From positions 1-19,245 of the forward strand of contig CAZBPC010000066.1 of assembly GCA_964493715.1 (NCBI GenBank): a DNA stretch of 19,245 bases, read 5' to 3'. The DNA is from an uncultured archaeon. Lineage in GTDB: Archaea; Asgardarchaeota; Lokiarchaeia; Sigyniarchaeales; SOKP01. A program made the translations under genes and the position numbers. This document shows positions 35 through 19,121 of this stretch, one piece after another (the first letter of the stretch is position 1; every line of letters starts with the position of its first letter). The notes beneath the pieces were generated by a model, which made no database searches, had not been told where the DNA came from, and worked only from the letters and a program-made list of their open reading frames with translations.

Positions 35-400
35 GTGAATATAAACATGAGTATGGATCCGATTTTATTGCAAGTCGTAATATACATAATTATCCTCGTT
101 GTAATGGCTATTTTTCTTAAGGTTGCATTGAACTTTGTTAAAAATTCAAATAACACTCAATTTGGTCGAGTATTTTTAACTGCTTTCTTGATTACTTTAG
201 TGTTTTTCCTTTTAGATTACTTTGTAGGTGGATGGATAGGAATAATAATTGCTCTAGTCATAATATGGGTACTTATAAGCGTAATACATCATACTGGTTT
301 TGGTACAGCAATAATAGTCACAGTTGTAGCCGTGATATTGTATGTTATTGTCTTTTGGCTTCTTGGTTATTTCTTTGGAATACCATTTTTCTTATTCTAG
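35..400 (+). CDS. Small polytopic membrane protein (about 4 TM helices), function unknown; true start may be ATG 47 or 53
   Basis: 121-aa ORF with four hydrophobic stretches; internal repeat NTQFGRVFL / HTGFGTAII; T-rich tract at 430-440 downstream. Confidence 0.75.
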   Translation: MNINMSMDPILLQVVIYIIILVVMAIFLKVALNFVKNSNNTQFGRVFLTAFLITLVFFLLDYFVGGWIGIIIALVIIWVLISVIHHTGFGTAIIVTVVAVILYVIVFWLLGYFFGIPFFLF

Positions 401-2054: not shown

Positions 2055-3293
2055 TTATTTGGATAATTTTCTTTTTCTAATATTTCTCTCCAAATCTTCA
2101 GGTTCAATTGTTATTTTTTCGCCACTCAATAATGCAGAAACACCAATTTGTTTTTCGCAATTTTCGCAATGACAAATTGGTACATAATCTTTAGGTTCTT
2201 CATAGGTAGTAATAACACCTTCAAAGTTCCTTAGGACAACCCTACTATTTCCTTGAGAGATTGTATAATCAGGCATGACAGGTATTTTACCTCCTCCTCC
2301 TGGAGCATCCACAACGAATGTGGGAACGCAAAGCCCAGAAGTATGTCCTCGAAGACCCTCAATGATTTCAATGCCTTGAGCAACACTCGTACGAAAATGT
2401 CCGAGTCCAACAGATAAATCACACTGATATATATAATAAGGTCTTACTCTTATTTTGACTAAATCTTGAACCAATTTCTTCATTACGTGGATACAATCAT
2501 TAACACCTCGCAAGAGTACTGATTGATTTCCAAGAGGGATACCCACATCAGCTAACATTTCACAAGCTCTTTTGGAATCTTCTGTAATTTCATTTGGATG
2601 GTTAAAATGAGTATTGAACCAAATAGGGTGATATTGTTTTAACATTTCACATAAGTCAGGAGTAATCCTTTGGGGCATGACTACAGGACATCTTGAACCT
2701 ATTCTTATAATCTCAACATGAGGAATTTCCTTCAAGCTAATTATAATTTCTTCTAATAATTTGTCTGAAATTAGCATTGCATCACCTCCAGATAAAAGAA
2801 TATCCCTTATAGAAGGTGTTTCTTTAATGTAATCAATGCATTTTTCAATTTGGTCCTTTGGAGGGGCTTTATCGTGATGTCCCGCAAATCTTCGTCTAGT
2901 ACAATGTCGACAATACATGCTACAGTTCTCTGTAACGAGGAACAGAACTCTATCAGGATAGCGATGGGTTAACCCAGGCACTGGGGAGTCAACTTCTTCG
3001 TGAAGGGGATCTTCTAAATCACCAAGTGATCTATGGAGTTCATGAATAGTTGGAATTGCTTGTTTGCGTATTGGGTCATAAGGATCGTGAGGATCTATTA
3101 ATGATAAATAATAAGGGGTGATTGCCATTCTCATTTTTTCCAAGATTTTTGGATCATCCTCTTCTTTCATCAATGGGACAAGCTCTTTTACTTCTTCAAG
3201 AGTGGTTATCCTATTACTAAATTGCCATCTCCAATTGTTCCAATCCTCATCCGAGATATGCCCAAATAATTCTTTTCGTCTATTTACTCTCAT
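2055..3293 (-). CDS. kamA: Lysine 2,3-aminomutase (radical SAM, PLP-dependent)
   Basis: DWNNWRWQ N-terminus, PGLTHRYPDR, radical-SAM CSMYCRHCTRRR, LLSGGD, HFNHP, PLP lysine in DAPGGGGK, C-terminal CHCENC Zn site; neighbours kdd. Confidence 0.95.
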   Translation of the reverse strand: MRVNRRKELFGHISDEDWNNWRWQFSNRITTLEEVKELVPLMKEEDDPKILEKMRMAITPYYLSLIDPHDPYDPIRKQAIPTIHELHRSLGDLEDPLHEEVDSPVPGLTHRYPDRVLFLVTENCSMYCRHCTRRRFAGHHDKAPPKDQIEKCIDYIKETPSIRDILLSGGDAMLISDKLLEEIIISLKEIPHVEIIRIGSRCPVVMPQRITPDLCEMLKQYHPIWFNTHFNHPNEITEDSKRACEMLADVGIPLGNQSVLLRGVNDCIHVMKKLVQDLVKIRVRPYYIYQCDLSVGLGHFRTSVAQGIEIIEGLRGHTSGLCVPTFVVDAPGGGGKIPVMPDYTISQGNSRVVLRNFEGVITTYEEPKDYVPICHCENCEKQIGVSALLSGEKITIEPEDLERNIRKRKLSK

Positions 3294-3478
3294 GATGATT
3301 ACTAATTATTGTATCTATTTTAATTTAAGTATCCTTATTTGTTAAGCTTTAGGAGTCTGTGGGAGAAAAACCCCATTAAAAGTGCAAAATCCTATTATTA
3401 TATAAATTTCTCTTGGGATGTATAATACCAAGGTTTGTATATCAAGCCTTTAAAAAGAGCGAAAACTTAATTTGATCA

Positions 3479-4516
3479 CTACGCGTATTTTTCATTAAAG
3501 ATTTCTCTTAACTTTTTTGATTCTCTTAAAAGATCAAGAGTAATTTGAGCATGGTTCTTAGTATATCCATTACCAATAATCATCGTTACATCTTTACCTA
3601 CACCTTCAGCTCCTAAAGCTGCTTTTGTAAAACTCGTGGCCATCGAGAAGAAATACACAGTTCCACCGTCTTTAACAGGCAAAATACATGACATTTCAAC
3701 ATTAGGAATGGATAAACAATTAATAGAAATGTCAACTTCTTTTCCACCATTTGCTTTCAAAGCTTCCTCTAAGATATTGACTGGATTTTGTACATCTGCG
3801 ATAATAACCTTATCGCAAAAACCTGTATTTTTGAGAAATTGTCCTCTATTTTCATTTCTAGCTTGACCGATTACTATTCCTTTAGAGCCAACCATTTGTT
3901 TTGCCATGCAAGAGCACATTAATCCAGATTTTCCAGTTGCACCTAAAATCAAAACACTATTCCCAAGATTTACTAATTTCTTTACTTGAGCCGGTGCTCC
4001 TGCTACATCAAGAGCTGCCAAAGCGAGAGTATCTTCCATATCTTCAGGAAGTTTGGCATAGATTCCACTTTCAAAAAGAATTGCTTTTCCATCTATTTCA
4101 ACACGATCAATATCAGAGTCAATTTTTATTATTTTTTTGATATTTAAGGGAGTTAATGAAAGAGAAACCAAGGTAGCAATCCTATCACCAACCTTTAAAT
4201 CTATATTGCTGGATATTTTCGATCCAATTTCTTCAACACGCCCAATAAGCATGCCTCCTGAACCAGTGACAGGATTTTGCATTTTTCCTCGTTGATTCAC
4301 TATTTCAATGATCTTATTTTTTACTTTCTCAAGATCTCCTTGAGCTTCTTGCTTTAATTGTGTAAAACTTGCTGAATCAATATTTAAATAATCTACATCA
4401 ATTAAAATCTCATTATCATAAAGTTCCATATCATTAGAAATTTTTAAAGCTGGTTGAGGTAAAGAACCTTTAGGATCAATTACTCTATGAGTTCCGTATA
4501 ATGTACCCTTTTTCAT
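3479..4516 (-). CDS. kdd: L-erythro-3,5-diaminohexanoate dehydrogenase (start revised to ATG 4516)
   Basis: MKKGTLYGTHRVIDPKGSLPQPA, LNIDSASFTQ, GKMQNPVTGSGGMLIG, ATLVSLSLTPL, LDVAGAPAQ and FFSMATSF are characteristic Kdd segments; GGAGA SD-like motif upstream of 4516; adjacent to kamA. Confidence 0.92.
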   Translation of the reverse strand: MKKGTLYGTHRVIDPKGSLPQPALKISNDMELYDNEILIDVDYLNIDSASFTQLKQEAQGDLEKVKNKIIEIVNQRGKMQNPVTGSGGMLIGRVEEIGSKISSNIDLKVGDRIATLVSLSLTPLNIKKIIKIDSDIDRVEIDGKAILFESGIYAKLPEDMEDTLALAALDVAGAPAQVKKLVNLGNSVLILGATGKSGLMCSCMAKQMVGSKGIVIGQARNENRGQFLKNTGFCDKVIIADVQNPVNILEEALKANGGKEVDISINCLSIPNVEMSCILPVKDGGTVYFFSMATSFTKAALGAEGVGKDVTMIIGNGYTKNHAQITLDLLRESKKLREIFNEKYA

Positions 4517-4625
4517 GATTATATCTCCAAAATAGTTTGATGTGATATTTACAATATTAACTTTAATAAGAATTTTTTCTACCATTCAAAAATAGGAATA
4601 AGAAAACAATACATATGGATAATTC

Positions 4626-4706
4626 ATAAATTCAAATGATGATTATGAGCGTTATGGAATCCCTGGTACTGGAACAGAAGAAGTATCAATCGCTATCATG
4701 GTTTAA
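4626..4706 (+). pseudogene. Possible remnant of an archaeal extracellular beta-helix (NosD/CASH-like) protein
   Basis: Reads INSNDDYERYGIPGTGTEEV..., resembling the 'I-x-x-N-D-D-F-x-x-Y-G-F-P-G-x-G-T-x-x-D-P-Y' cap motif; flanked by stops, no start codon. Confidence 0.3.
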
Positions 4707-4962
4707 TGTCCATTTTAGGGCATTAATTAAACCAGTTATACCTCCACCGATTACTATTAAACTATAATTATTCAAATCAGTCATGATTTAAACATTTAAT
4801 GTCCCAATATTTATAGGTTTAATTTTTCTTCATGTTTTTTCCTATAATCAGTAAGCTTAGAAAATAGTTAACTTTTTTAGTTGACGGTGCATAGAATAGT
4901 TATTAGAAAATGTCTTAGCAATATTAGCTAACTCTAGAATTAAAACTCAATAGGGAATCGAT

Positions 4963-5109
4963 ATGGTGTTTATAAAAATGAAAGGTATTTATCTATTGAG
5001 TTTAGTCTTTGTTGATGGATCAAATGACACTTTTGTTATTAGATCGGATGATGTACAGAATTTTCCTTTATTTTTTTCGCATCTACATCATCATCAACAT
5101 CATAAATAA
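4963..5109 (+). CDS. Candidate histidine-operon leader peptide (HisL-like), start uncertain (ATG 4963, ATG 4978 or TTG 4996)
   Basis: MVFIKMKGIYLLSLVFVDGSNDTFVIRSDDVQNFPLFFSHLHHHQHHK*; CAT CTA CAT CAT CAT CAA CAT CAT at 5080-5103, TAA at 5107-5109, 86 nt upstream of hisIE. Confidence 0.7.
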   Translation: MVFIKMKGIYLLSLVFVDGSNDTFVIRSDDVQNFPLFFSHLHHHQHHK

Positions 5110-5195
5110 TTCCGATGAATTAAGGTAGTAAATTTACTCGATTATTCATTGGAATTGAATCGAACTGAAATCTAATTCAGTTTTGGGGGTATATT
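5010..5195 (+). promoter_or_regulatory. Putative attenuator / structured 5' leader of the his operon
   Basis: 13-bp stem 5108-5120/5144-5156 (one G-U); stem 5162-5169/5176-5183; competing stems 5047-5055/5084-5092, 5043-5048/5111-5116 and 5151-5160/5175-5184; SD-like GGGGGT at 5185-5190. Confidence 0.6.
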
Positions 5196-6107
5196 ATGTT
5201 AATATTAAAAGTGGAAATAAAGGATATAGAATTGCTGGGAGGAATTACCCAGTTTATTAAAGAAGTATTTTTAAAAAGGAATTGGGATGTTTTTTTAACT
5301 TTAGTCCTAAAAGTCAATAAGCAAGATTTCGATAGACTGAACATGAATGATAATAATTTGAAGGAAATTTCTCAGAATCTAGATTTAATATTTGAAATAG
5401 TTGATGGTCAGAATGAGATGAAAAAACTGCTATATAAAAGAGGTTATAAAACCATTATTCAATCATCACCTAACCGCTATGAAATCATCTATTTTAATTC
5501 AAAAATGAATTATTCATTAATAGACGATAGTTTGCTAAATATTCTCGATTTTGATAAAGAGCATGGGTTAATTCCAACAATAGTACAAGATCAGAGCAAT
5601 ACCGTGTTAATGCTTGCATACTCTTCTAAAGAATCATTAAAAGAAACAATAAAAACTCGGAAGGCAACCTATTTCAGTAGATCAAGAAACAAACTATGGA
5701 TAAAGGGAGAGGAATCTGGAAATTTTCAAGAAGTAAAAAGAATTCTTTTTGACTGTGATAAGGATGCTCTCTTGTTTAAAGTTGAACAAACGGGATACGC
5801 TTGCCATACAGGAACATATTCTTGTTTTGCTGATAGAGAATTTTCATTAAATGTTCTCTATGATATAATCAACAATAGAATAGAGAATTCTACAGTATCA
5901 GATTCTTATACTAAGAAGCTAGCTGAAGACAATAAATTACTACTTTCAAAAATCAAGGAAGAAAGTTTAGAAGTGATAAATTTTACTGATAGAGACAATC
6001 TTATCTGGGAGATTTCTGACATAACATATTTTATCCTAGTTTTAATGGCAACAAAAAAAATTATACCTCGTGAAATTTTAAATGAATTAAGGAGGCGGAA
6101 TAAATGA
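5196..6107 (+). CDS. hisIE: Bifunctional phosphoribosyl-AMP cyclohydrolase / phosphoribosyl-ATP pyrophosphatase with an ~115-aa N-terminal extension
   Basis: HisI motifs [42 protein letters not shown]; HisE motifs [20 protein letters not shown]. Confidence 0.92.
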
Positions 6108-7111
6108 AAAAAACAGAGTTTTATTATAAATCACGGCAAGTGAGATTAGCTATACCTTCAAAAGGAAGAATGGAAAAAGAGACTCAAGATTTCTTGAAGG
6201 AATGTGGTTTTAACATACAAAGGAATAACAGACAATATATTGGCTCTATAAATGGACCCATTGATCTCCAATTAGTGTATCAACGACAAGTAGATATTGT
6301 CAGAGGCGTGCTTAACGGTTCTTTAGAGCTTGGAATAGTTGGTTATGATTTAGTCCTTGAATATTTACCTGACGAGAATAAGGAATTAGTAGTTATACAT
6401 GAAGCGTTAAATTTTGGAAAATGTAGTATTGAAATTGCAGTTCCTGAAGATTGGGACGAGAAATCAATTGAAGAAATTAAACAAAACAAGGAAAATTTAA
6501 AAGTAGCAACAAAATTTCCAAAACTTACTGAACAATACCTTAACTTGAAAGGGATTTCTTGTGAATTAGTTAAAGGAAATGGTTCTCTTGAAGTTTATCC
6601 TGAGTTAGATTATAGCGATATAATAGTTGATTTAGTTTCTACAGGTCAAACATTAAAGGATAATCGTCTAAAGACAATAGATGGCGGTCAAATATTAAAA
6701 TCCGAGGCTGTACTCATTGGGAACCGATCAGCATTAAAAAATGATCCCACCTTAAAGATCGCTAGAGGATTAATAGAGTATTTTGAAGCAACTCTCAGAG
6801 CACAGAATTTTGTTTCTGTATTTGTGAACATGAGAGGGGAAAGTCAAGAAGAAATAGCTAATGCGATCTTCTTGAAAGATGGACTTGAGGGTCTTCAAGG
6901 ACCTACAATTTCTCCTGTTTTCACAAAATCTGGAGAAAAGATGCATGCTGTTCACGTTATTGTTGAGAAAGAAAGATTACAAATAGCTATTAGAAATTTA
7001 CGTGAGATTGGTGGAAGTGGAGTGGTTGTCGCACCAACACTCTATATTTTTGAGGAAGAACCAATCAGATATATAAAATTATTAAAAAATTTGGGGAAGA
7101 ATTATGATTAA
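6104..7111 (+). CDS. hisG: ATP phosphoribosyltransferase, long form with C-terminal regulatory domain
   Basis: [57 protein letters not shown]; ATGA overlap with hisIE and AAGGAGG SD. Confidence 0.95.
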
Positions 7112-8387
7112 GATTTATTCAATAGAAGAAGCAAGAACCAGTATACTTAAAAGAGGAATTAAACAAGAATTGCCAGAAGAAAATGTAAGAAGAATAGTAA
7201 ACGATGTGAAGGAACGAGGAGATATAGCTCTTAGAGAGTGGACTGAAAAATTTGACAAAGTAAAAATTGATCAATTTGAGGTTCTGAATTTAAACTATAC
7301 AGAATATCTAAACAACATCACTCAAGAGTTAAGACAATCTCTCGAACTCGCTTGCGATAGAATCTATAAATATCACAAATCTCAGCCAAATTCTCCTTGG
7401 GAAAATAATGATCTTGGAGGACAGCTAGGTCAAATAATAAGACCTATTGGAACAGTTGGTATTTATATTCCGGGAGGCACAAGTCCTTTATTCTCATCTA
7501 TATTAATGACTGCAATTCCTGCTATAGTGGCGGGGACTAAAAACCTAATTTTTGCCACTCCTCCTAATCAAGATGGAACTTTATCAAAAATTATTCTTGC
7601 AACCTTCGGAATAATAGATTCCTTGGGTGTAAATTTTCGTGTGTTTAAAATGGGGGGTGCTCAAGCAATTGCTGCCATGGCATTTGGTACTGATCAAATC
7701 CCAAAAGTAGATAAAATTGTAGGACCTGGGAATATTTATGTGAATTTAGCTAAAAAAGAAGTTTATGGATATGTTGGAATTGATGGTATATATGGTCCAA
7801 CTGAGGCGTTAATTATTGCCGATGATACTGCAAATCCATCATTAATTGCGTCAGATCTTTTAGCACAAGCTGAACATGACGTTTTAGCGATACCAATTTT
7901 AGTAACACATGCAAAAAGTATAATTTTTGCTGTCAAAAAGGAGTTAAAAACTCAAATTGAAAACCTTGAGAGAAAATCTATCATAAGAGAATCAATAAAT
8001 AATAAAGGTGGTATTATTCTAACAAATTCAATTGAAGAATCATTTAATATTTCAAATGAGTTTGGTCCTGAACATCTATCCTTAATGCTCAAAGAACCTT
8101 TAGAATATATTGATTTAATTGAAAATGCTGGAGGGGTATTCATTGGTGAAAATTCTTTTGAAGTATTAGGAGATTATATTGCAGGTCCTAGTCATGTGAT
8201 GCCTACAAATGGAACAGCTCGATTTTCTTCAGCCTTATCAGTGTATGATTTTGTTAAAAGGATTAGTTTTGTAAACTTGAATAGAAAAACTGTTCTAGAC
8301 TTATCCAAATTTGCTGAGATTATGGCAAGTAATGAGGATTTGACAGGACATGCAAACTCTGCAACTATAAGAAGGAGAGTGATTTAA
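7104..8387 (+). CDS. hisD: Histidinol dehydrogenase
   Basis: VGIYIPGG, GGAQAIAAMAFGT, KIVGPGNIYV, GPTE, DLLAQAEHD, PEHL, GDYIAGPSHVMPTNG; overlaps the hisG stop. Confidence 0.96.
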   Translation: MIKIYSIEEARTSILKRGIKQELPEENVRRIVNDVKERGDIALREWTEKFDKVKIDQFEVLNLNYTEYLNNITQELRQSLELACDRIYKYHKSQPNSPWENNDLGGQLGQIIRPIGTVGIYIPGGTSPLFSSILMTAIPAIVAGTKNLIFATPPNQDGTLSKIILATFGIIDSLGVNFRVFKMGGAQAIAAMAFGTDQIPKVDKIVGPGNIYVNLAKKEVYGYVGIDGIYGPTEALIIADDTANPSLIASDLLAQAEHDVLAIPILVTHAKSIIFAVKKELKTQIENLERKSIIRESINNKGGIILTNSIEESFNISNEFGPEHLSLMLKEPLEYIDLIENAGGVFIGENSFEVLGDYIAGPSHVMPTNGTARFSSALSVYDFVKRISFVNLNRKTVLDLSKFAEIMASNEDLTGHANSATIRRRVI

Positions 8388-8388
8388 A

Positions 8389-9519
8389 ATGAAGAGAAAA
8401 AATTTTATTATCAAACCATCAAAAGCAATTCAAAAATATTTGGGCTCAATGGATGCTTCATTATATCTAGAAGAACAGAACCAAGGAGGAAGTAAATTCA
8501 TATACCTAGATAAAAATGAAAATCCTTTTTCACCTCCTTTAGAAGATTTATCCTCTTTAATCTCTTTAGATGTCCTAAAAAACTATCCAGATCCTAATTC
8601 TAATGAAATATTAAACAGATTGTCGCTGATTCTTGAGGTTCCGACATCATTTTTAATTGCTGGATCGGGTTCTGATGAGTTGCTAGATCTTGTAATTCGA
8701 ACATTTGCAACATCTAAAACAATGATATTGAGTATATGTCCTACATTTTCAATGTATAAATTTTATGCAAGCATAAATAATGCGAAATACGTAAGTGTAC
8801 CTTTAAAACTCTCGGTAAATGAAGCATCTGGACTGGCAAAATTTAACTTAGATCCAGAAATTTTTATTAAGAAAGCTAAAATGTCAGACATAATCATTCT
8901 GGCAAGACCAAATAATCCTGACGGAATGGTTATCGATATTGAATTCATTGAGAAGCTTCTGGAACTGGAAAAGTTAATCATTATTGATGAAGCTTACATT
9001 GACTTCAGTTATAAACCCAGTTTAATAGGTTTGGTAAAAAATTATCAAAATTTAATTATATCACGATCATTTAGCAAATCCTTTTCGCTCGCTGGGTTAA
9101 GATTAGGATACATTATTGCAAATCCTTCAATAATAAAGATACTAATGAAGGTGAAAAGCCCATTTAATGTTAACAATATGGCTTTACAAATAGGTTTGGT
9201 ATTATTGAATAACTACGATAAGGTTAGTGCCAATGTTAATAAAATTAAACAAATTCGAGAAGAATTTTACAGTGATCTCACCAAATTAAGAGAGAAATGT
9301 AAAGGATTTTATTACCATCCAAGTGAAGCAAACTTTACTTTATTGAGATTTCAATCAAAAGAGAGATCACAATCAGTGTATCAATTTTTCCTAAAAAACC
9401 AAATAAAAGTGAGGAAATTCGATTCAGAACTCTCAAACTGTCTAAGAATTTCAATAGGTAAAAGGTTACAAATGAAAAATGTAATAAAAATTTTAAATTT
9501 ATACTTTGAGGTGAATTAA
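8389..9519 (+). CDS. hisC: Histidinol-phosphate aminotransferase
   Basis: LDKNENP, NYPD, GSGSDE, PTFSMY, PNNPDG, IIDEAY, PLP lysine in SRSFSKSFSLAGLRLG; located inside the his operon. Confidence 0.9.
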   Translation: MKRKNFIIKPSKAIQKYLGSMDASLYLEEQNQGGSKFIYLDKNENPFSPPLEDLSSLISLDVLKNYPDPNSNEILNRLSLILEVPTSFLIAGSGSDELLDLVIRTFATSKTMILSICPTFSMYKFYASINNAKYVSVPLKLSVNEASGLAKFNLDPEIFIKKAKMSDIIILARPNNPDGMVIDIEFIEKLLELEKLIIIDEAYIDFSYKPSLIGLVKNYQNLIISRSFSKSFSLAGLRLGYIIANPSIIKILMKVKSPFNVNNMALQIGLVLLNNYDKVSANVNKIKQIREEFYSDLTKLREKCKGFYYHPSEANFTLLRFQSKERSQSVYQFFLKNQIKVRKFDSELSNCLRISIGKRLQMKNVIKILNLYFEVN

Positions 9520-9520
9520 A

Positions 9521-10126
9521 TTGGAAAGAAAAACACATTTAGAAAGGAAGACTAAGGAAACCAATATTAAAGTGGATTTAAATCTCGATGGTGTAGGAGA
9601 ATCTAAAATTAGTACTTCGATAGCTTTATTTGATCATCTTCTCACTCAGATTGCTGTCCATGGATGTTTTAATCTAAATATTAATGCAGAAGGTGATCTC
9701 CCAATAGATAATCATCATATAATTGAAGATACTGCAATTGTTTTGGGAAAAGCTTTTAAAAAAACCTTAGATTATAAAAAAGGGATTACTCGGGTAGCAC
9801 ATTCTTTTTTTCCGATGGATGAGTGCCTTGCTTTTGTTGCAGTGGATATTTCTTCAAGACCATTTTTTCGAAAAGAAATCAACTGGAAAAATCAATTTTT
9901 AGGCTCTAAAGAGGAAAATTTAATTCCAGTAGACTTAATAGAGCATTTTCTATATTCATTTTCGATAAATGCTAAAATAACGCTTCATGTAAGGTCGCTA
10001 TATGGTGATAACAATCACCACATAACAGAAGCGATATTTAAAGCTCTTGGGAAGGCTCTAGATTATGCCTCGAGATTCGATCCAAAACGTGAACAAACTC
10101 TTCCTTCAAGTAAAGGATATCTATAG
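9521..10126 (+). CDS. hisB: Imidazoleglycerol-phosphate dehydratase (monofunctional)
   Basis: RKTKETNI, FDHLL, DNHHIIED, PMDE, NNHHITEAIFKA, PSSKG; TTG start preceded by GAGGTGA (9508-9514); no N-terminal phosphatase domain. Confidence 0.95.
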   Translation: MERKTHLERKTKETNIKVDLNLDGVGESKISTSIALFDHLLTQIAVHGCFNLNINAEGDLPIDNHHIIEDTAIVLGKAFKKTLDYKKGITRVAHSFFPMDECLAFVAVDISSRPFFRKEINWKNQFLGSKEENLIPVDLIEHFLYSFSINAKITLHVRSLYGDNNHHITEAIFKALGKALDYASRFDPKREQTLPSSKGYL

Positions 10127-10136
10127 AGGGATTCAT

Positions 10137-10733
10137 ATGATTATTATAATAGATTATGGAAGTGGGAATCTTAGGTCGATTCAAAAAAGCTTTGAGAGAT
10201 TTTACTCTGATGTGAGGATTTCGAATGACATAAATTTAATAGAGCAAGCACATGGATTAATTCTTCCAGGTGTAGGATCTTTTGGAGATGCGATAAAGGA
10301 ACTCGCACGATACAATCTAATCGATGCTTTAAGAAAAATTTTCAAACATGTTCCAACTATGGGAATCTGTTTGGGTATGCAGTTATTTTTCTCAAGATCA
10401 GAAGAATCTTTTGGTATACGTGGATTAGATGTAATTCCTGGGGTCGTAATTAAACTTAATAGTAATGAAACGATAAAAATTCCTCATACTGGTTGGAATA
10501 GATTAATTCCAACTTCAGAGCCCTATTTTTTAGGTTATGCATACTTCAATCACTCTTACTATTGCTTACCAAACGAGAAAAAAGTATGTATCACATACTT
10601 TAACCATGGAAAATCTATTCCTGCAATTATAGTTAAAGATCAAATAATTGGTGTACAATTCCATCCAGAAAAAAGCAAAAATGTTGGTGATAATATAATT
10701 AAATATTTTATTTCAATGCTTAGAGGGAGTTAG
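10137..10733 (+). CDS. hisH: Imidazole glycerol phosphate synthase glutaminase subunit (start revised to ATG 10137)
   Basis: IIDYGSGNLRS, LPGVGSF, GICLGMQ (nucleophile Cys), PHTGWN, QFHPEKS; GAGGG upstream of 10137. Confidence 0.95.
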   Translation: MIIIIDYGSGNLRSIQKSFERFYSDVRISNDINLIEQAHGLILPGVGSFGDAIKELARYNLIDALRKIFKHVPTMGICLGMQLFFSRSEESFGIRGLDVIPGVVIKLNSNETIKIPHTGWNRLIPTSEPYFLGYAYFNHSYYCLPNEKKVCITYFNHGKSIPAIIVKDQIIGVQFHPEKSKNVGDNIIKYFISMLRGS

Positions 10734-10736
10734 AAA

Positions 10737-12239
10737 GTGAAAAAGATAATTCCTGCTATTGATCTGTATAATGGAAATGCTGTTCGGTTATACCAAGGTG
10801 ATTTTAACAAAATTAAAATATATCATAGAAACCCGGTTGAGCTTCTAAAGAGTTTTCTTTCTCTAGGAGTTGATCTAGTTCATGTTGTAAATTTAAATGG
10901 AGTTAGACCTAGAAATTTCAAAGGAAATGACAATTTTAAAGTCATTAAATCTCTTATTGATGAAGCTAATAATTGGGGATCAAAAATAGAATTAGGAGGG
11001 GGAATTAGAACCATAGATACTATTGACAAACTTCTTGATTGGGGGCTTTATAAATTTATTATTGGAACCCTTGCTGTGGAGAATCCAACTCTTTTAAATA
11101 AATTTATTCTAAATTACAGAGACCAAATGATTGTGGCTTTAGATTTTCTTAAAGGGCACTTAAAGATTAAAGGGTGGACTGAAGAAAGCAATAGAAGTTT
11201 AGATTCCTACTTTTTAAAGCTAGAGGATCAAGGAGTTTCGCATTTCATAATAACCGACATCTCTCGAGATGGTACCTTGAGTGGTGTCAATATTGCTTCA
11301 TACAAGAAGATATCAAGTATTAAGCAAGATAATACAAAAATCATAGCATCAGGAGGGATTATAAATGAAAGTGATGTTCATAAGGTTTTGCAATACACAG
11401 ATGGAGTAATAATTGGGAAAGCATTATACAGCAACAATATAAGTTCTAAAAGTCTGCAAAATCTCATAGTTAATTATAATCCAACTAATTTAACAAAACG
11501 AGTGATCCCCTGTCTCGATGTTAAAGATGGGCGAGTCGTAAAAGGAGTACAATTCAATAATCTGCAAGATAGTGGAGATCCTGTAGAATTGGCTAAATTT
11601 TACAATGATGAAGGAGCAGACGAATTAGTTTTTCTAGATATTTCAGCTACACTAGAAGGACGAAAAAGTATGCTCAGTACAATCCATTCTGTTGCTGAAG
11701 AAGTATATATTCCATTAACAGTTGGTGGTGGAATAAAAACTATTGAGGATATGACTGCAATTATCAAAGCTGGAGCCGAAAAAGTGAGCATAAATTCCGC
11801 GGCTATAAAAAACCCAGATTTAATTACGAAAGGAGCAAAAAAATTTGGGTCTCAATGCATTGTTGTTGCTATCGATGCAAAAAAAAAAGGTGAATCATGG
11901 GAAGTTTATTCACATAGCGGTTCAAAACCTACTGGCATCGACGTTTTAGAATGGGTAAAAATTGTAGTGGAAAAAGGGGCGGGAGAACTTTTAGTTACAA
12001 GCATTGATAGAGATGGGACTAACATAGGATATGATATTGAGTTAATCCGAGCAATTACGAATATTGTGTCTGTACCTGTGATCGCTTCAGGGGGAGCTGG
12101 AACTAAAGAGCATTTTATAGATGCAATTAATAATGGAGCAGAAGCTGTGTTAGCGGCTTCATTATTTCATTACAATCGCATGAAAATTCAGGATTTAAAA
12201 GATTTTTTAGGTAATCATAATATTATGATAAGAAAATAA
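10737..12239 (+). CDS. hisA-hisF: HisA-HisF fusion: ProFAR isomerase (residues ~1-245) joined to IGP synthase cyclase subunit (from residue ~252, nt ~11490)
   Basis: HisA: [43 protein letters not shown]. HisF: [54 protein letters not shown]. No stop or ATG at the junction. Confidence 0.92.
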
Positions 12240-14609: not shown

Positions 14610-15431
14610 TTATAATTTCAAAATTTTTCTTGCTTCAATTGGAGATGCTATTTCTCGACCTAATTCAGAAGCAATCCTTACTACTTTTTCAACTAGTTGA
14701 CCGTTAGATTCTGCTAATTTTCCTTTAGAGAGGAATAAGTTGTCTTCTAAACCAACTCTAACGTGTCCTCCATATATTATTCCCATTGTAGCAACAGAAA
14801 ACTCATATCTTCCTACGCCAGTTACGGTATAAGTAGAATCTTTAGGTAAACTTTCAATTAAAAAAACTATATCTCTTGGTGTAGCCGTAATTCCACCATT
14901 CACTCCAAAAACTAAATTAAAATGCATTGGACTTTTTATGATACCTTTTTCGTAATGTCGGAGAGCCATATCGATATGACTTTTATCAAAACACTCCAAT
15001 TCAGGTTTTATACCAAGATTATTCATTTCTTTAGCAAAGTAATTAATGGAAGTTTCAGTATTGACGAATATTTCATCATTTCCGAAATTCATTGTACCAC
15101 AATCTAAGCTAGCAAGAAGAGGTGCCGGTTTTAGATATATTGGTTGTAATCTTTCTTCATTAGTCATGCCAACAGCACCTCCAGTTGAAGGCATTATTAT
15201 TACATCTGGACATCGCTTCTTAATCTCTTCAATGCATTCTTTAAATCTTTTTATGGATTGTGTAGGTTTTCCATCATCTTTCCTAACGTGTAAATGAATG
15301 ATACTAGCACCAGCTATATATGCTAATTCTGCTTCATTTCCTATCTCTTTAATAGTATAAGGAATATTAGGATTTTGTTCTTTTGAAACTTCTGCTCCAC
15401 ATATTGCCGCAGTTATTATTAATTTTTGCAT
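14610..15431 (-). CDS. kce: 3-keto-5-aminohexanoate cleavage enzyme (BKACE/DUF849); start revised to ATG 15431
   Basis: KLIITAAICGAEV, IIHLHVR (Zn HxH), STGGAVG, ASLDCGTMNFG, PELECFD, GGHVRVGLEDN; lysine-fermentation context; GAGGA upstream. Confidence 0.9.
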   Translation of the reverse strand: MQKLIITAAICGAEVSKEQNPNIPYTIKEIGNEAELAYIAGASIIHLHVRKDDGKPTQSIKRFKECIEEIKKRCPDVIIMPSTGGAVGMTNEERLQPIYLKPAPLLASLDCGTMNFGNDEIFVNTETSINYFAKEMNNLGIKPELECFDKSHIDMALRHYEKGIIKSPMHFNLVFGVNGGITATPRDIVFLIESLPKDSTYTVTGVGRYEFSVATMGIIYGGHVRVGLEDNLFLSKGKLAESNGQLVEKVVRIASELGREIASPIEARKILKL

Positions 15432-15555
15432 TCGTACTTTAGTCCTCTTCAATATATATGATACAAATTTTAAATTACATAAAAAGATTAGAATAAAATC
15501 ATGCTATTATATAAATTGATAAGTATTCTTTTTTAGTAATTATTTTTCAGGTGAA

Positions 15556-15651
15556 ATGATAATAAATTGGATAATTTGTATATCTTGTGGAGCTATATGG
15601 TGGTATTCTGAAAAAAGATTTAAAATATTCGTTCTAAATAGAAAGAAATAA
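15556..15651 (+). CDS. Candidate 31-aa microprotein with CxxCG motif
   Basis: MIINWIICISCGAIWWYSEKRFKIFVLNRKK*; AGGTGA just upstream, TTATATAA at 15507-15514, T-tract at 15653-15665. Confidence 0.25.
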   Translation: MIINWIICISCGAIWWYSEKRFKIFVLNRKK

Positions 15652-15698
15652 CTTTTATTTTTTTTAAAGTATATCAAATGATATATAAAAATTATATT

Positions 15699-16943
15699 TT
15701 ACATAAACTTTCTACACTCTTTTAGAGACTCACCAATCATGTTTGCTGCGTTATTCAAATCTTCCACTGTATGCCTATAACAGATATATCCATGATGATA
15801 AGGTTGTAGAAAAATGTTTCTTCTAATCAGTTGTCTATAAAATTCCTCTCTTAGTTTCCGATATAAGTAATTAGGATCAGAATCAAATGTGATATATGGC
15901 ATCCAAGGTCCTCCTGAAAATGTACATGGGACTTTACTATCTTCTATTACTTGCTTAATATTTTTAGCAAATATTTCACCATTTTTACGAATACTCCCTA
16001 AAACGTCGTCTCTCTCCATTATTTCTATTGTTTTCAATGCTGCAACTTGTGGCAAACTATTTGGAAAGAAAGTCGAACTTAAAAATACTTCTTCGATTAA
16101 AACATCCATGATTTCTTCCTTGCCTGCAAGAAAGCTAATTGAATAGCCATTTGCCAGCGCTTTGCCGAATGCCGCAAGATCGGGGATAACTCCAAATTTT
16201 TTTTGTGCGCCTCCAAGATTGACTCTAAAACCAGTACGTATCTCATCATACATCAATAGCGCTCCATGCTTATCTGCTAATTCACGTAATCCTTCTAGAA
16301 AGCCAGGTTTGGGCATTTCTACTTCATGCCCTCCAGGATGATTTATAGGCGTAACAATTATTGCAGCTACATCATTACCATAAGTATTCATCAGCTTGGT
16401 GACGTGATCTAAATTATTATATTCAAATTCATAAACATCCTCATATAATTTTTTAGGAATTCCCCCCTTATTTTCAACACACCAATCGTGCCAACCATGA
16501 TATCCACAACGGAGAATTTTTACACGTTTTGTATAACCTCGAGCAACTCGGATACCAATAGTAGTAGCATCAGAACCCGTTTTGACAAAAACCATCTTTT
16601 CACAGCATGGTATTAATTCTTTTAATTTTTTGGCTAATTTATTTTGTACTTGTTGAGTTAATGACATGCAAAAGCCCTTGTTTTTAATTTGGTCGATAAC
16701 CGCATTATCGATTTCTTCCTCTCTATGTCCAATAATAATTGGTCCATACGCGCATAACATGTCCAAATATTCATTTCCGTCCACATCAATAACTTTACCT
16801 CCTTTTGCAGTTTCAAAAAAGATGGGGTATTCTCCTTCAACAAAATTGTAGGGCCTTCTTATGCCTAAAATTGCACCGGGGATTAAATTCAATGCATCAT
16901 CATACAATTTAAAAGATTTTTCTAAGTTCAATTTTTCAGACAA
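15699..16943 (-). CDS. kat: Class III PLP aminotransferase, most likely 3-aminobutyryl-CoA aminotransferase
   Basis: GIRRPYNFVEGEYPIF, DVDGNEYLD, KTGSDAT, CGYHGWHDW, DEIRTGFR, FGKALANG (PLP Lys); directly upstream of kce; TTG start with AGGAG SD. Confidence 0.8.
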   Translation of the reverse strand: MSEKLNLEKSFKLYDDALNLIPGAILGIRRPYNFVEGEYPIFFETAKGGKVIDVDGNEYLDMLCAYGPIIIGHREEEIDNAVIDQIKNKGFCMSLTQQVQNKLAKKLKELIPCCEKMVFVKTGSDATTIGIRVARGYTKRVKILRCGYHGWHDWCVENKGGIPKKLYEDVYEFEYNNLDHVTKLMNTYGNDVAAIIVTPINHPGGHEVEMPKPGFLEGLRELADKHGALLMYDEIRTGFRVNLGGAQKKFGVIPDLAAFGKALANGYSISFLAGKEEIMDVLIEEVFLSSTFFPNSLPQVAALKTIEIMERDDVLGSIRKNGEIFAKNIKQVIEDSKVPCTFSGGPWMPYITFDSDPNYLYRKLREEFYRQLIRRNIFLQPYHHGYICYRHTVEDLNNAANMIGESLKECRKFM

Positions 16944-17391: not shown

Positions 17392-18978
17392 CTACCATAT
17401 TAAATTATAAATAACCGTTTTTGCTCTCTCTGCTTCCTTCTTGCCAAGAACCTTATTTATCCTTAAATCATTAATTGCTTCTTCAAGCTTAGTATCGAGG
17501 TTTTTCATTTCCATTAAATTTCCTTTTTCTCCGCCTTTTTCAACAAGATTTATCATTGCATTATCTTTATTCATAAGGTCTCGTAATTTTGTCCTAAACG
17601 CATCTGTGACTTTTGTTTTTTGAACCTTACCATTTTGAACTAGTAATGGCAGAACAGGAGCCCTTTCAGTAGTTCTTCTGGTATTTGGGTCAACAAAATA
17701 GAATATGAACATTGGTATTCCTACAATCACATTTTGCGTGTTAATTTCAATCGAATATTGTTTAAAAAAGTTCTGCACGTTTCCCATTTCGATATCTTTG
17801 ATATATTCTATATTATCCAAACAAGATTGTTTTTCTTGCTTAACTTTAGCAACAATTGTCTCGGTATTAGTAAGATCGTTACTTAATTCACTATGTTTAG
17901 CTTGAATCTTACTTTCAACTTCAGACTTTTTTTGTTCCAATTCTCGAATCTTCTGCTGTTTGGATTTTTCTAAATCTGAAATTTCCTTCTGAACGTTTTT
18001 CTTCAATTGACCGATTTCAGTATTATACCTATTAATAGAATTTCCTAGATCTTGGTACTTTATTCCTAAATCGTTCAAAGCACTTTCAACTTCAAAAAGA
18101 TCATTCTTATTAATCGCGGCTTTAAGGCGATCAACACCATTTTTTATAGCATTATTATTGTTATATAATTCACTCGTTTTATCATTAATCTTGTATTTAC
18201 CGCTTTTTACCAATTCTTCAGGAGTACTCTCGATTTTCTTAGCTTTTTCAGCTTCGATTTCCTTGGTAAGTTGAGCAAGTTGTTTCTCTTCTTCGCTAGT
18301 ATCAATTTTTTTACTTCGAATTTTATCGGCGTCTTGAGCACCTCTTTGCAACCATTGATCACAGAGCTGTATTATGACTTGTCCATAATTATCGAGCATT
18401 CGCACATCTTGTTGTGAAATATAATCGAACACCTCTTGAACGATTTTTGCTTGGTTAATGCTCTTAGGTATTGGATCACCTTCCAATAAGAAATGAGGTT
18501 CACCAAATGAATTCAGGTTATATTGATTCAAGAAAAAATTCTTAAAATATTCTACCTCATCAGCACTGAATAAGGCTTCCTGAATTACAGTCCCTCTCTT
18601 AAAATTTTTGGATTTTTTGAGATATGTTGTGTTATATGATTGTAAGGAACTCAAAAATGTATCAATATCTGATCCTTTGATTAAATTTTCAGGGTTCGGT
18701 GGCACTTCTGCGAATTTGCCTACGCTTAATTTTTCTTGTTTATTAAGTAGATAACTACACACGCACGCCCTCGTTTCATTTAAAGGAATCAAGCGAACAG
18801 GCCAGAAGCAAATGCTTATTCTGTTGATTTTTCCTAGCTTCTTCAGAGATTTCGCATAAATATTTATGCATTCATTTAAGGCCATTGCCATTTCATCTAA
18901 TAAAGTCGCTTTACTTCGCGTGGGGATGATTTCACCAATATTTATTAGAAACGGAATTATTCTATCAACATTTGCCAT
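17392..18978 (-). CDS. Hypothetical protein with a long central coiled coil; start ATG 18978 (or GTG 18987)
   Basis: About 530-aa ORF; K/E/Q/L heptad-rich region at about residues 215-395, flanked by globular segments; no Walker A or TM helix seen. Confidence 0.8.
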   Translation of the reverse strand: MANVDRIIPFLINIGEIIPTRSKATLLDEMAMALNECINIYAKSLKKLGKINRISICFWPVRLIPLNETRACVCSYLLNKQEKLSVGKFAEVPPNPENLIKGSDIDTFLSSLQSYNTTYLKKSKNFKRGTVIQEALFSADEVEYFKNFFLNQYNLNSFGEPHFLLEGDPIPKSINQAKIVQEVFDYISQQDVRMLDNYGQVIIQLCDQWLQRGAQDADKIRSKKIDTSEEEKQLAQLTKEIEAEKAKKIESTPEELVKSGKYKINDKTSELYNNNNAIKNGVDRLKAAINKNDLFEVESALNDLGIKYQDLGNSINRYNTEIGQLKKNVQKEISDLEKSKQQKIRELEQKKSEVESKIQAKHSELSNDLTNTETIVAKVKQEKQSCLDNIEYIKDIEMGNVQNFFKQYSIEINTQNVIVGIPMFIFYFVDPNTRRTTERAPVLPLLVQNGKVQKTKVTDAFRTKLRDLMNKDNAMINLVEKGGEKGNLMEMKNLDTKLEEAINDLRINKVLGKKEAERAKTVIYNLIW

Positions 18979-19121
18979 TGATATCACTTTAGGATAGGAT
19001 TCTATATTAAAGTTTTAATGGATTCATATAATTAAATTTATGTTTTCAAGACTTTGAAAAAAACTAATATATATGCATGTTCAATTTAATTTTATTAGAA
19101 AATATATATAAATGAAATATC

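Follow-up and report, generated by a model that had tools for sequence, protein, structure and literature searches.

Could an archaeal his operon be regulated by the very ribosome that translates a short, histidine-rich leader ORF in front of it, and if so, do the RNA stems in and behind this ORF form a switch? This question is raised by a locus of a Promethearchaeota (Asgard) archaeon, contained within a stretch of 19,245 nucleotides that was analysed as a whole and is here called the window. Its his operon, which judging from the sequence is presumably controlled by the leader, directly follows an ORF whose codons for the operon's own product are clustered towards the stop (Table 1). An intact leader ORF, starting with ATG or TTG and carrying a GUGA-type SD-like element 8-10 nt upstream of its start, is present at 16/16 loci, and at all of these 4-8 of the last 12 codons encode His, compared with a genome-wide His frequency of 1.7%. 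The ORF spans 36-56 codons, the alignment gaps within it (3, 6, 9, 12 or 42 columns) are multiples of three, and across loci a spacing of 78-95 nt is preserved between its stop and the ATG of hisIE. The peptide itself differs between clades, with retention of the His tail and of a stop codon placed within a helix. This short ORF is hence conserved, can be translated from a start signal of its own, lies 5' of a his operon, and clusters codons for the amino acid which that operon produces. Within the family, it precedes all 15 hisIE loci that bear an extra N-terminal domain, and a scan of the 15 hisIE loci without that domain, nine of which were also inspected by eye, revealed no His-tail ORF.

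Table 1. Positions of leader and operon features within the window.
Feature	Position	Strand	Remarks
Promoter-like element ACTTTTTTAG, archaeal TATA-like	4871..4880	+	about 92 nt 5' of leader start codon
Helix P0	4945-4953/4993-5001 (4945..5001)	+	spans leader SD-like GGGAAUC (4953-4959) and start codon (4963)
Leader ORF, 48 codons, MVFIK...SHLHHHQHHK	4963..5109	+	stop TAA 5107-5109
Leader His codons	5080, 5086, 5089, 5092, 5098, 5101	+	six within the last 10 codons
Three-way junction within the ORF (C, P1, B)	5010..5099	+	B and C bury His codons
Helix C	5010-5017/5092-5099	+	8 perfect bp
Helix P1	5018-5021/5042-5045 and 5023-5028/5035-5040	+	covariation
Helix B, over His codons	5047-5055/5084-5092	+	9 perfect bp
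Helix A, 13 bp (12 Watson-Crick, 1 G-U)	5108-5120/5144-5156 (5108..5156)	+	variable apical hairpin
Helix E, 8 bp (1 G-U), A+U-rich	5162-5169/5176-5183	+	ends 1-2 nt before hisIE SD
hisIE SD GGGGGU (5185-5190) and start ATG (5196-5198)	5185..5198	+	pairs with 16S rRNA 3' end
his operon hisIE-hisG-hisD-hisC-hisB-hisH-hisAF	5196..12239	+	Pfam and NCBIfam matches
Pairing D, 6+6 perfect bp	5043-5048/5111-5116 and 5049-5054/5097-5102	+	complementarity only
Pairing F, 10 bp (3 G-U)	5151-5160/5175-5184	+	complementarity only
SD/AUG pairing	5101-5105/5194-5198 and 5109-5113/5186-5190	+	complementarity only

The start of hisIE is backed by HisIE relatives that align from residue 1, and its SD by the 16S rRNA of the same genome, which ends in ...GGATCACCTCC and pairs with GGGGGU through one wobble. 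Upstream of the leader, the TATA-like element is a putative promoter; of the 15 loci whose sequence reaches far enough upstream, 12 have such a motif 68-97 nt 5' of the leader start, one more has it at -120, and two lack it. Two metatranscriptome libraries yielded 151-nt contigs at 4969-5119 and 5028-5175, possibly through DNA carry-over; these contigs come with no condition, transcript ends, strand or levels, and stretches without RNA cover are uninformative.

Which of the possible stems have been kept by evolution? A DNA search with the leader as query returned only 2 strong matches, due to the fast divergence of the leader region. Alignments were made of 13 genome-derived relatives found via the HisIE protein (A2), and of these 13 together with 12 metagenome-derived sequences (A3). 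In A2, 90.8% of cells are paired, as opposed to 27-42% when the partners are slid, and 14 pairs are changed on both sides, a number matched by 0/500 shuffles; in A3, 40 cells are changed on both sides (0/500 shuffles), where it should be noted that the sequences are closely related and that the shuffle statistics hence overstate significance. Single-column covariation in the 25 sequences is dominated by clade structure. Only one fold, consisting of P0, P1, B, A and E, carries covariation. P0 is paired in 97% of cells in 13 sequences and 94.3% in 25, with two pairs changed on both sides, while B (87.6% in the 13, 91.9% in the 25) and P1 (88.5% and 86.4%, respectively) both show compensatory changes. 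Helix C, paired in only 69% of cells, holds solely in the clade of the window, and in one clade (5/25 sequences) the 5' arm of B is deleted and replaced by a C-like pairing. Helix A, whose first pair involves the second base of the leader's TAA and whose cap is the palindrome AGTAAATTTACT (5127-5138), pairs in 97.5% of cells among the 13 sequences and has three pairs in which both sides changed; one of its positions is G-U in 12 and G-C in 10 members of the 25-sequence set, and therefore it is the RNA of the + strand that pairs. Helix E is nearly invariant in sequence and 100% paired in both sets, 3 sequences having A-U in place of one G-C pair, although the pattern used for the metagenome search fixed both arms of E and parts of A, so that only the 13 genome sequences are unbiased. 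Together, A and E fold 69 of the 86 nt between leader stop and hisIE start, the single-stranded remainder being a 5-nt linker and the SD-to-AUG stretch.

Folding energies agree with this picture. The region 4960-5210 as a whole reaches z = -2.56 (2/200 shuffles as good), and its modules score better: helix A (-17.4 kcal/mol) has z = -4.96 (0/200), C+P1+B -4.39 (0/200), A+E -4.26 (0/200), P0 -3.80 (1/200) and E -3.71 (2/200). Comparison with shuffled controls had been proposed in the initial annotation of this DNA, and the modules pass it with z from -3.7 to -5.0. A covariance model of the module formed by His codons, A and E gives one match per genome in 13 of the 133 genomes of the family, and in the 12 of these 13 genomes for which its place was compared, this match lies at the 5' end of hisIE. 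The claim of that annotation that RNA structure links the His codons to the hisIE start region is supported by conservation, and all of its pairings A-F are indeed present in the sequence, including the palindrome, the perfect 9 bp of B and the 8 bp of C. Its further claim, that these stems are mutually exclusive, is not supported, as D, F and the SD/AUG pairing lack significant covariation and are weaker than A and E. Covariation, which it had suggested as a check, thus favours A, B and E along with P0 and P1, and fails for D, F and the SD/AUG pairing. The complementarity of these three stems from repeated motifs (GAUGA/UCAUC, UUCC/GGAA/GGGG and CAU/AUG); D, for instance, is paired in 85% of cells, and 184/500 shuffles reach as much. 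An all-against-all helix search in the 25 sequences gave no long alternative besides B', in which the 5' arm of B pairs with the second His cluster (5048-5054/5097-5103). Two further candidates were rejected: a helix between both start regions (4960-4969/5191-5200), part of the MFE structure, is intact only in the clade of the window, and b:c, a pairing between the first His cluster and A's 5' arm, is found in 83.9% of cells, a value reached by 93/500 shuffles, with 7 bp only in the HHW clade.

If there is no supported second fold, what then would compete with B and A? B overlaps the His codons, A overlaps the stop, both are conserved, and the competitor would most simply be the translating ribosome itself. 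We consider it somewhat probable that this leader attenuates in response to His by way of the ribosome, B or A being opened by the ribosome itself instead of by a competing helix. The region studied here would constitute the 3' half of a leader of about 300 nt that serves as a histidine gauge for the operon, with the leader ORF being translated from its own weak SD. In RNA free of ribosomes, the first His cluster would be buried in B (plus C in the window's clade), and the stop codon would form the foot of A. With generally known footprint sizes, a ribosome awaiting His-tRNA on 5080-5103 would melt B and C but reach no further than a few pairs into A, which would stay shut, while a ribosome that reaches the stop codon would unzip almost all of A. 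In folds with a ribosome mask, A and E stay intact when the mask lies on the early His codons, and A is lost in 8/8 core-type sequences when it lies at the stop. As a first choice for the output, a closed A would provide a compact spacer, allowing the polymerase to continue into hisIE and the open SD to be used, so that the operon would be on under starvation. If terminating ribosomes instead prevented A from closing, ribosome and polymerase would be separated by about 45 nt of unfolded, AU-rich RNA, which may invite factor-dependent termination of the FttA/aCPSF1 type, or decay, and the operon would be off. A translational effect on hisIE initiation would be the second choice. The ribosome geometry, direction and output step of this attenuator are inferred, and we agree with the initial annotation that the direction is not readable from the sequence. 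It must however be taken into account that A would be closed most of the time whether the ribosome stalls at His or is released at the stop, so that the two states would presumably differ in kinetics.

The earlier alternative of an exposed U-tract appears weak. As had been observed, T4 at 5181-5184 is the only T-run after the leader, with three of its four bases within the 3' arm of E; its length differs between the two clades (T4 versus T3), and it is always paired in E. In M. maripaludis assays (PMC8716108), two U4 tracts were bound well by aCPSF1, one about 5-fold less, and U3 tracts were unbound. With a run of only U4 or U3 that is moreover base-paired, no good factor site is visible. A terminator in the U-rich loop of helix B (5061-5077, with runs T4, T3 and T7) was considered and rejected, this loop being located 5' of the His codons, not conserved, and missing in the short-form clade.

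Could the leader instead act on translation of hisIE, in the manner of ermC? Here a stalled ribosome would trigger refolding that masks or unmasks the hisIE SD/AUG; for example, UUCC of the 5' arm of A and the last CAU would pair with GGGG...AUG, while the 3' arms of A and E would pair with each other, a combination of F and the SD pairing. As in ermC/cat-type attenuation, a leader ORF lies 5' of the regulated gene and stalling would remodel RNA beside the downstream ribosome binding site, but the SD-sequestering hairpin is absent, and the SD and AUG of hisIE are unpaired in the predicted ground state, in both the MFE and centroid folds. Complementarity of the SD/AUG region is kept in 89.1% of cells, as opposed to about 50% when slid, F pairs in 84.6% (13 sequences) to 86% (25 sequences), and the diverged leaders G007 and G104 are predicted to carry a GAGG SD in a small hairpin. 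However, 32/500 shuffles reach the former value, and 63/500 and 115/500 the latter two, so that none is significant, and both strands are conserved for other reasons (the His codon CAU versus AUG, the SD, and helix A). Furthermore, forcing the UUCC:GGGG pairing costs +6.7 kcal/mol (computed for the window sequence only), and E beats F in all masked folds, persisting in 11/11 folded sequences under a mask on A's 5' arm. A refolding, dependent on the ribosome, that would hide the SD was also sought in masked partition-function folds of 11 leaders, and rejected: the unpaired probability of the SD ranges from 0.19 to 0.69 across masked states with no consistent shift, and the ensembles of 16 sequences show no conserved SD partner. 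We therefore regard this explanation, and the example given for it, as unlikely.

Amino-acid sensing by the ribosome is also favoured by two other leaders in the same genome. The gene for TrpB2 (NF009057, 643.7 bits) is preceded by an ORF of 17 codons, four of them for Trp, with its stop within a hairpin loop, and 19 of the 20 loci fetched from the genus show at least three Trp in such an ORF; a 28-codon ORF ending in LLVLLLLL lies 5' of leuS (NF008957, 1044 bits), directly followed by a hairpin. Like the His leader, both have cognate codons at the end of the ORF and a stop in or at the foot of a conserved hairpin, and both have downstream U5-type tracts, which the His leader does not. The genome-wide scan for codon-rich short ORFs that yielded them gave 265 candidates, its noise being too high in the case of F, I and L; downstream ORFs of 36 candidates were translated, with the gene family confirmed only for these two cases.

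This sensing bears on the explanation that the leader ORF encodes a functional His-rich small protein, for instance a metal-binding one, or that a regulatory protein recognizes the folded leader, the His codons not being the sensor. The ORF is long for a leader peptide, the stem of E is nearly invariant, as would be expected of a protein site, and the fairly conserved middle of the peptide within clades (e.g. LLSLVFVDGSN..VIRS) could also mean a functional small protein. Yet this middle coincides with P1, B and C, where the changes are compensatory at the RNA level, and the His tail and stop-in-helix geometry outlast the divergence of the peptide between clades. The extra N-terminal domain of HisIE was rejected as an RNA-binding regulator, as it resembles a decayed His_biosynth barrel. 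Together with the cognate codons before trpB2 and leuS, this makes the explanation quite improbable.

Ribosome-mediated attenuation is a textbook mechanism in bacteria, and the enterobacterial his attenuator (hisL), laid out as A:B, C:D and E:F, is the obvious reference. It shares with the Asgard leader a short ORF with clustered His codons directly 5' of the his operon, a series of helices that covers its regulatory codons and extends past the stop, and, as proposed here, a ribosome whose position decides which helices form. The Asgard ORF is nevertheless three times longer, its His codons occupy the 3' strand of a helix and not the first one, and it has neither a hairpin-plus-U-run terminator nor a supported antiterminator. 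In a transcription attenuator of the bacterial type, E and its U-run would be an intrinsic terminator, F or another pairing the antiterminator, and A the anti-antiterminator. The order B, A, E does resemble the enterobacterial layout, E is a hairpin followed by U, and F excludes both A and E. However, E is A+U-rich with U3-U4 inside its stem, the latter being U3 in half of the sequences, and only one or two U past the stem before G5; F loses to E and has no covariation. This agrees with the initial annotation, which had seen no classical terminator. Moreover, archaeal polymerases are known to terminate at oligo-U and not to need hairpins, so that the host's polymerase also differs in this respect. 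The Rfam model His_leader (RF00514) has no match at gathering score in the whole window, and neither it nor another attenuator model gives one in 4860-5230 at E up to 10; with regard to a T-box or other riboswitch, no Rfam family reaches its gathering score, and a permissive scan remained at chance level (E of at least 1.4). We hold such an attenuator to be very unlikely. Finally, a constitutive element without sensing (an mRNA stabiliser, or a translational coupling or standby site for hisIE) would suit an SD counted as open across predicted states and a leader stop that A and E place spatially close to it, but hardly deserves credence, as it leaves unexplained both the strict His clustering at the ORF end in 16/16 loci and the bias of the Trp and Leu leaders towards their own cognate codons.

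For the ribosome-mediated attenuator, a closer parallel may be found in Rho-dependent attenuation by leader ORFs, known in bacteria from tnaC-tnaA, mgtL-mgtA and corL-corA. The shared principle would be that the position of the ribosome sets whether RNA is folded or exposed to a factor, so that an intrinsic terminator is not needed. Unlike bacteria, archaea are not known to have Rho, and FttA/aCPSF1 would be needed in that part, for which no factor site is identifiable; a role of FttA/aCPSF1 in the control of coupling is stated in PMC11616081 only as a hypothesis. Tentatively, and as an idea that we rate as possible yet improbable, the His, Trp and Leu leaders might belong to an Asgard regulon of ribosome-read leader peptides, in which a stop-anchored hairpin, unzipped by the terminating ribosome, exposes nascent RNA to FttA/aCPSF1. 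This would be neither an RNA-versus-RNA switch nor an intrinsic terminator. Instead, archaea would have their own counterpart of Rho-dependent attenuation, and with it the first cis-regulator from nature that builds on archaeal transcription-translation coupling.

Our literature search found no paper describing ribosome-mediated attenuation in any archaeon. If the attenuator holds true, the closest prokaryotic relatives of eukaryotes would make the expression of amino-acid operons depend on leader-peptide translation through coupling of the two, and the leader would provide a compact natural test object for functional transcription-translation coupling in archaea. It would likewise test whether FttA/aCPSF1 polices this coupling as Rho does, as hypothesized in PMC11616081. 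More narrowly, the value of this analysis lies in telling apart the helices kept by evolution (P0, P1, B, A and E) from look-alike pairings between repeated motifs; the switch, if any, operates without a supported second RNA fold.

The extra N-terminal domain of HisIE, which accompanies the leader, matched no Pfam or NCBIfam family, and in a longer relative it aligns weakly to the HisA-like His_biosynth domain (E = 1e-4). In a sister family, hisIE occurs in only 3 of 14 genomes, where it lies inside an operon.

The his operon of this genome, a Promethearchaeota (Asgard) genome that is 100% complete by marker genes, is preceded by a leader ORF with a His-rich tail (see table). CAT makes up six of its final ten codons, and at all 16 leader loci 4-8 of the final 12 codons encode His, against a genome-wide His content of 1.7%. 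Among relatives the tails read HLHHHQHHK, HLHHHLHHK, HHLHHK, HHHLHYK, HHWLHH(K/E), HHWHYHL, HHCQHHY, HHLHHCLRNE, HIMHHFPTHK and HHHHHHHH, the last of which uses both CAT and CAC, as expected under coding constraint. Every leader ORF starts with ATG or TTG, 8-10 nt downstream of a GUGA-type element that matches the anti-SD at the 3' end of this genome's 16S rRNA (...GGATCACCTCC), and the hisIE SD, GGGGGU, forms six pairs with the anti-SD, one of them wobble. Alignment gaps inside the ORF span 3, 6, 9, 12 or 42 columns, and the leader stop is 78-95 nt upstream of the hisIE ATG at each of the 16 loci. Contigs of 151 nt from two metatranscriptome libraries cover 4969-5119 and 5028-5175, and another covers 5239-5388, which gives weak support for transcription of the leader. 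In what is presumably the untranslated 5' part of the leader, a small putative hairpin, TTAGC/GCTAA, is present at 4915-4931 (+ strand); reading by eye showed inverted repeats like it in several relatives.

Features of the his leader and operon, with two sister leader ORFs of the same genome; paired cells are for 13 and 25 aligned leaders
Feature	Position	Strand	Description	Paired, 13 / 25 sequences
Leader ORF	4963-5109	+	48 codons, MVFIK...SHLHHHQHHK; TAA stop 5107-5109; 5' of hisIE	
P0	4945-4953/4993-5001	+		97% / 94.3%
C	5010-5017/5092-5099	+	8 perfect bp	69% / 69.1%
P1	5018-5045	+		88.5% / 86.4%
B	5047-5055/5084-5092	+	9 perfect bp	87.6% / 91.9%
A	5108-5120/5144-5156	+	13 bp, one G-U	97.5% / 96.8%
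E	5162-5169/5176-5183	+	8 bp, one G-U	100% / 100% (search pattern fixed parts of A and E in the metagenome rows)
Pairing D	5043-5048/5111-5116 and 5049-5054/5097-5102	+	6+6 perfect bp	
Pairing F	5151-5160/5175-5184	+	10 bp, three G-U	
hisIE	5196-6107	+	First gene of the his operon	
Extra N-terminal HisIE domain	5196-5510	+	About 105 residues	
hisG, hisD, hisC, hisB, hisH, fused hisAF		+	his genes after hisIE	
hisAF, an apparent hisA-hisF fusion	10737-12239	+	500-residue ORF with two His_biosynth stretches	
Trp leader ORF	Contig C11, 10501-10557 (locus L118, 602-658)	+	MLTEKMTFWRWQWQWRS; 17 codons, four Trp	
Leu leader ORF	Contig C19 (locus L210, 246-332)	+	MTNNSNIANHILKKNLALDDLLVLLLLL; 28 codons, ends LLVLLLLL, mixed Leu codons	

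A family search with the HisIE protein in 119 genomes returned 30 loci. The His-tail ORF was present upstream in all 12 loci where HisIE aligns from residue 1 and in three with a longer N-terminal extension; locus L001, added from the species collection, brought the leader loci to 16. At the 15 loci L103-L117, whose hisIE is without the N-terminal domain, a scan found no His-tail ORF (nine were read by eye), and the extra domain and the leader co-occur in 15 of 15 loci. No Pfam or NCBIfam family was found for this domain. In the longer relatives the extension measures about 200 residues and weakly matches a HisA-like His_biosynth domain (E = 1e-4, 30% over 67 residues), which other family members carry fused to HisIE; the extra domain may represent a decayed barrel. 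Searching 133 family genomes with a covariance model of the His-A-E module gave a single match in each of 13; in the 12 of these shared with the HisIE search the match is at the 5' end of hisIE, the 13th (genome G138) being outside that comparison. A pattern made of the 3' arm of A and of E was also run against metagenomes. Of the 68 stretches that it matched, 15 are true leaders with both the His-tail ORF and the hisIE start, and the others are chance matches. Twelve were distinct from the earlier set, and in these rows the search pattern had fixed parts of A and E.

A base-by-base script located all six pairings, A to F, listed in the initial annotation, and placed the T4 at 5181-5184 within a stem, the 3' arm of E, as had been noted. 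Compared with dinucleotide shuffles, the region 4960-5210 reached z = -2.56 and the separate modules did much better: -4.96 for helix A (-17.4 kcal/mol), -3.71 for E, -4.39 for the C+P1+B junction, -3.80 for P0 and -4.26 for A+E, so the stems are real and exceed chance. In the alignment of 13 genome-derived leaders, the fold P0+C+P1+B+A+E has 90.8% of its cells paired versus 27-42% with partners slid, and 14 pairs changed on both sides, values matched by none of 500 shuffles. With the 12 metagenome-derived leaders added (n = 25), 90.6% are paired, and both partners have changed in 14 pairs and 40 cells, again with 0/500 shuffles, although such counts overstate significance because the aligned leaders are kin. 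One position of A holds 12 G-U and 10 G-C pairs among these 25 sequences, and the foot of E 13 G-U and 10 A-U; so many G-U pairs show the pairing strand to be + strand RNA. Helix C is held in the window's clade only. In five of the 25 leaders (loci L090, L152, L156, L194 and L202) a 42-nt in-frame deletion has removed the 5' arm and loop of B, leaving a 36-codon ORF, ...VIRSEHHHLH(Y/H)K, whose His codons are covered by a C-like pairing instead; B is therefore dispensable for whatever the leader does. The arms of P0 (4945-5001) and E (5162-5183) are near-identical, AACUCAAU/AUUGAGUU versus AACUGAA/UUCAGUU; a flipped central pair keeps the two helices from cross-pairing. A promoter-like element at 4870-4883 likewise reads AACT-T6-AGTT, and the likeness may stem from duplication, from a binding factor common to these sites, or from chance.

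It had been proposed that mutually exclusive stems link the His codons to the hisIE start. Pairing F has 84.6% of cells paired in 13 sequences (63/500 shuffles as good) and 86% in 25 (115/500), pairing D 85% (184/500), and pairing of the last His codon plus UUCC with GGGG...AUG 89.1% (32/500), none with significant covariation. Their complementarity can be traced to motifs whose recurrence has other causes: GAUGA/UCAUC, UUCC/GGAA/GGGG, and CAU versus AUG. All-against-all helix enumeration yielded as long conserved stacks only A, E, P0, B, P1 and B', the 5' arm of B paired with the second His cluster. Furthermore, E was retained in every fold with the 5' arm of A masked, forcing the UUCC:GGGG pairing cost +6.7 kcal/mol (in the window sequence), and no conserved partner of the SD was found in the ensembles of 16 leaders. 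As such, the covariation sought among leaders speaks for a conserved single fold and not for D, F or the SD/AUG pairing, and since these rivals also lose energetically, the claim of mutual exclusion is unsupported. Two other candidates were set aside: pairing of the first His cluster with the 5' arm of A (83.9% paired, 93/500 shuffles as good, no significant covariation), and a helix joining both start regions in the MFE of 4960-5210, which is confined to the window's clade.

So what would compete with the helices? Helix B holds the His codons in its 3' strand and helix A the stop codon in its foot, a conserved geometry, and A and E fold 69 of the 86 nt from the leader stop to the hisIE ATG; apart from the stretch between SD and AUG, a linker of 5 nt is all that stays free. 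The ribosome masks use generally known footprint sizes; masking the early His codons leaves A and E folded, and masking the stop removes A. The simplest reading of this masked folding is that the competitor would be the ribosome itself. When His-tRNA is scarce, ribosomes would park on 5080-5103, melting B and C with A shut; when His is ample, they would reach the stop and unzip A. We consider it probable that the leader senses His. With A open, about 45 nt of RNA would lie naked and within reach of a termination factor or a nuclease; a closed A would protect it. Given His sensing, such a polarity-type output is put forward tentatively; it is favoured by the missing intrinsic terminator, by a U-run that is short and paired, and by a hisIE SD that is open in all predicted states. 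A translational output, acting on initiation at hisIE, comes second. A bacterial-type terminator is unlikely: as first described, a classical one is absent, the U-run being U4 or U3, paired, and followed by G5. In work on M. maripaludis aCPSF1, two U4 tracts are needed for efficient binding and U3 tracts are unbound (PMC8716108), and another paper proposes that FttA polices coupling lapses, as Rho does (PMC11616081).

By sensing His through ribosome position, the Asgard his leader would work like bacterial leader-peptide attenuators. It falls outside Rfam His_leader, whose model gave no match either at the gathering score or with E values up to 10, and it is without a terminator or a supported antiterminator. 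Neither does it show the sequestered SD that defines ermC-type control. In a full-text search, with subscription journals largely outside it, no paper describing leader-peptide attenuation for archaea turned up. The initial annotation is confirmed in part and its interpretation supported in part; fold and ORF are seen here, and the off-switch is still a proposal.

Two sister leader ORFs in the same genome support this reading of the His leader. The Trp leader ORF lies 159 nt 5' of a TrpB-like gene (NF009057, 643.7 bits), with its stop codon in the loop of a GGCGUU/AACGCU hairpin; of 40 other genomes in the genus, 21 have a match to its DNA, and W-x-W-x-W ORFs occur in 19 of 20 fetched genus loci. 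The Leu leader ORF lies 132 nt 5' of leuS, leucine-tRNA ligase (NF008957, 1044 bits), and an inverted repeat, read by eye, runs from its stop codon onward, followed by a T5 run.

Pfam gave no family for the ORFs at 35-400 (+) and 17392-18987 (-), of 121 and 531 residues. The his operon is flanked, at 2055-4585 (-) and 14610-16943 (-), by genes for lysine 2,3-aminomutase, a zinc-dehydrogenase-like protein, BKACE (beta-keto acid cleavage enzyme) and a class-III aminotransferase, which suggests a lysine-fermentation-type set. A 32-codon ORF at 4686-4784 (-), MTDLNNYSLIVIGGGITGL..., resembles an isolated N-terminal dinucleotide-binding motif of a flavoprotein and could be what is left of a gene between kdd and the his promoter.
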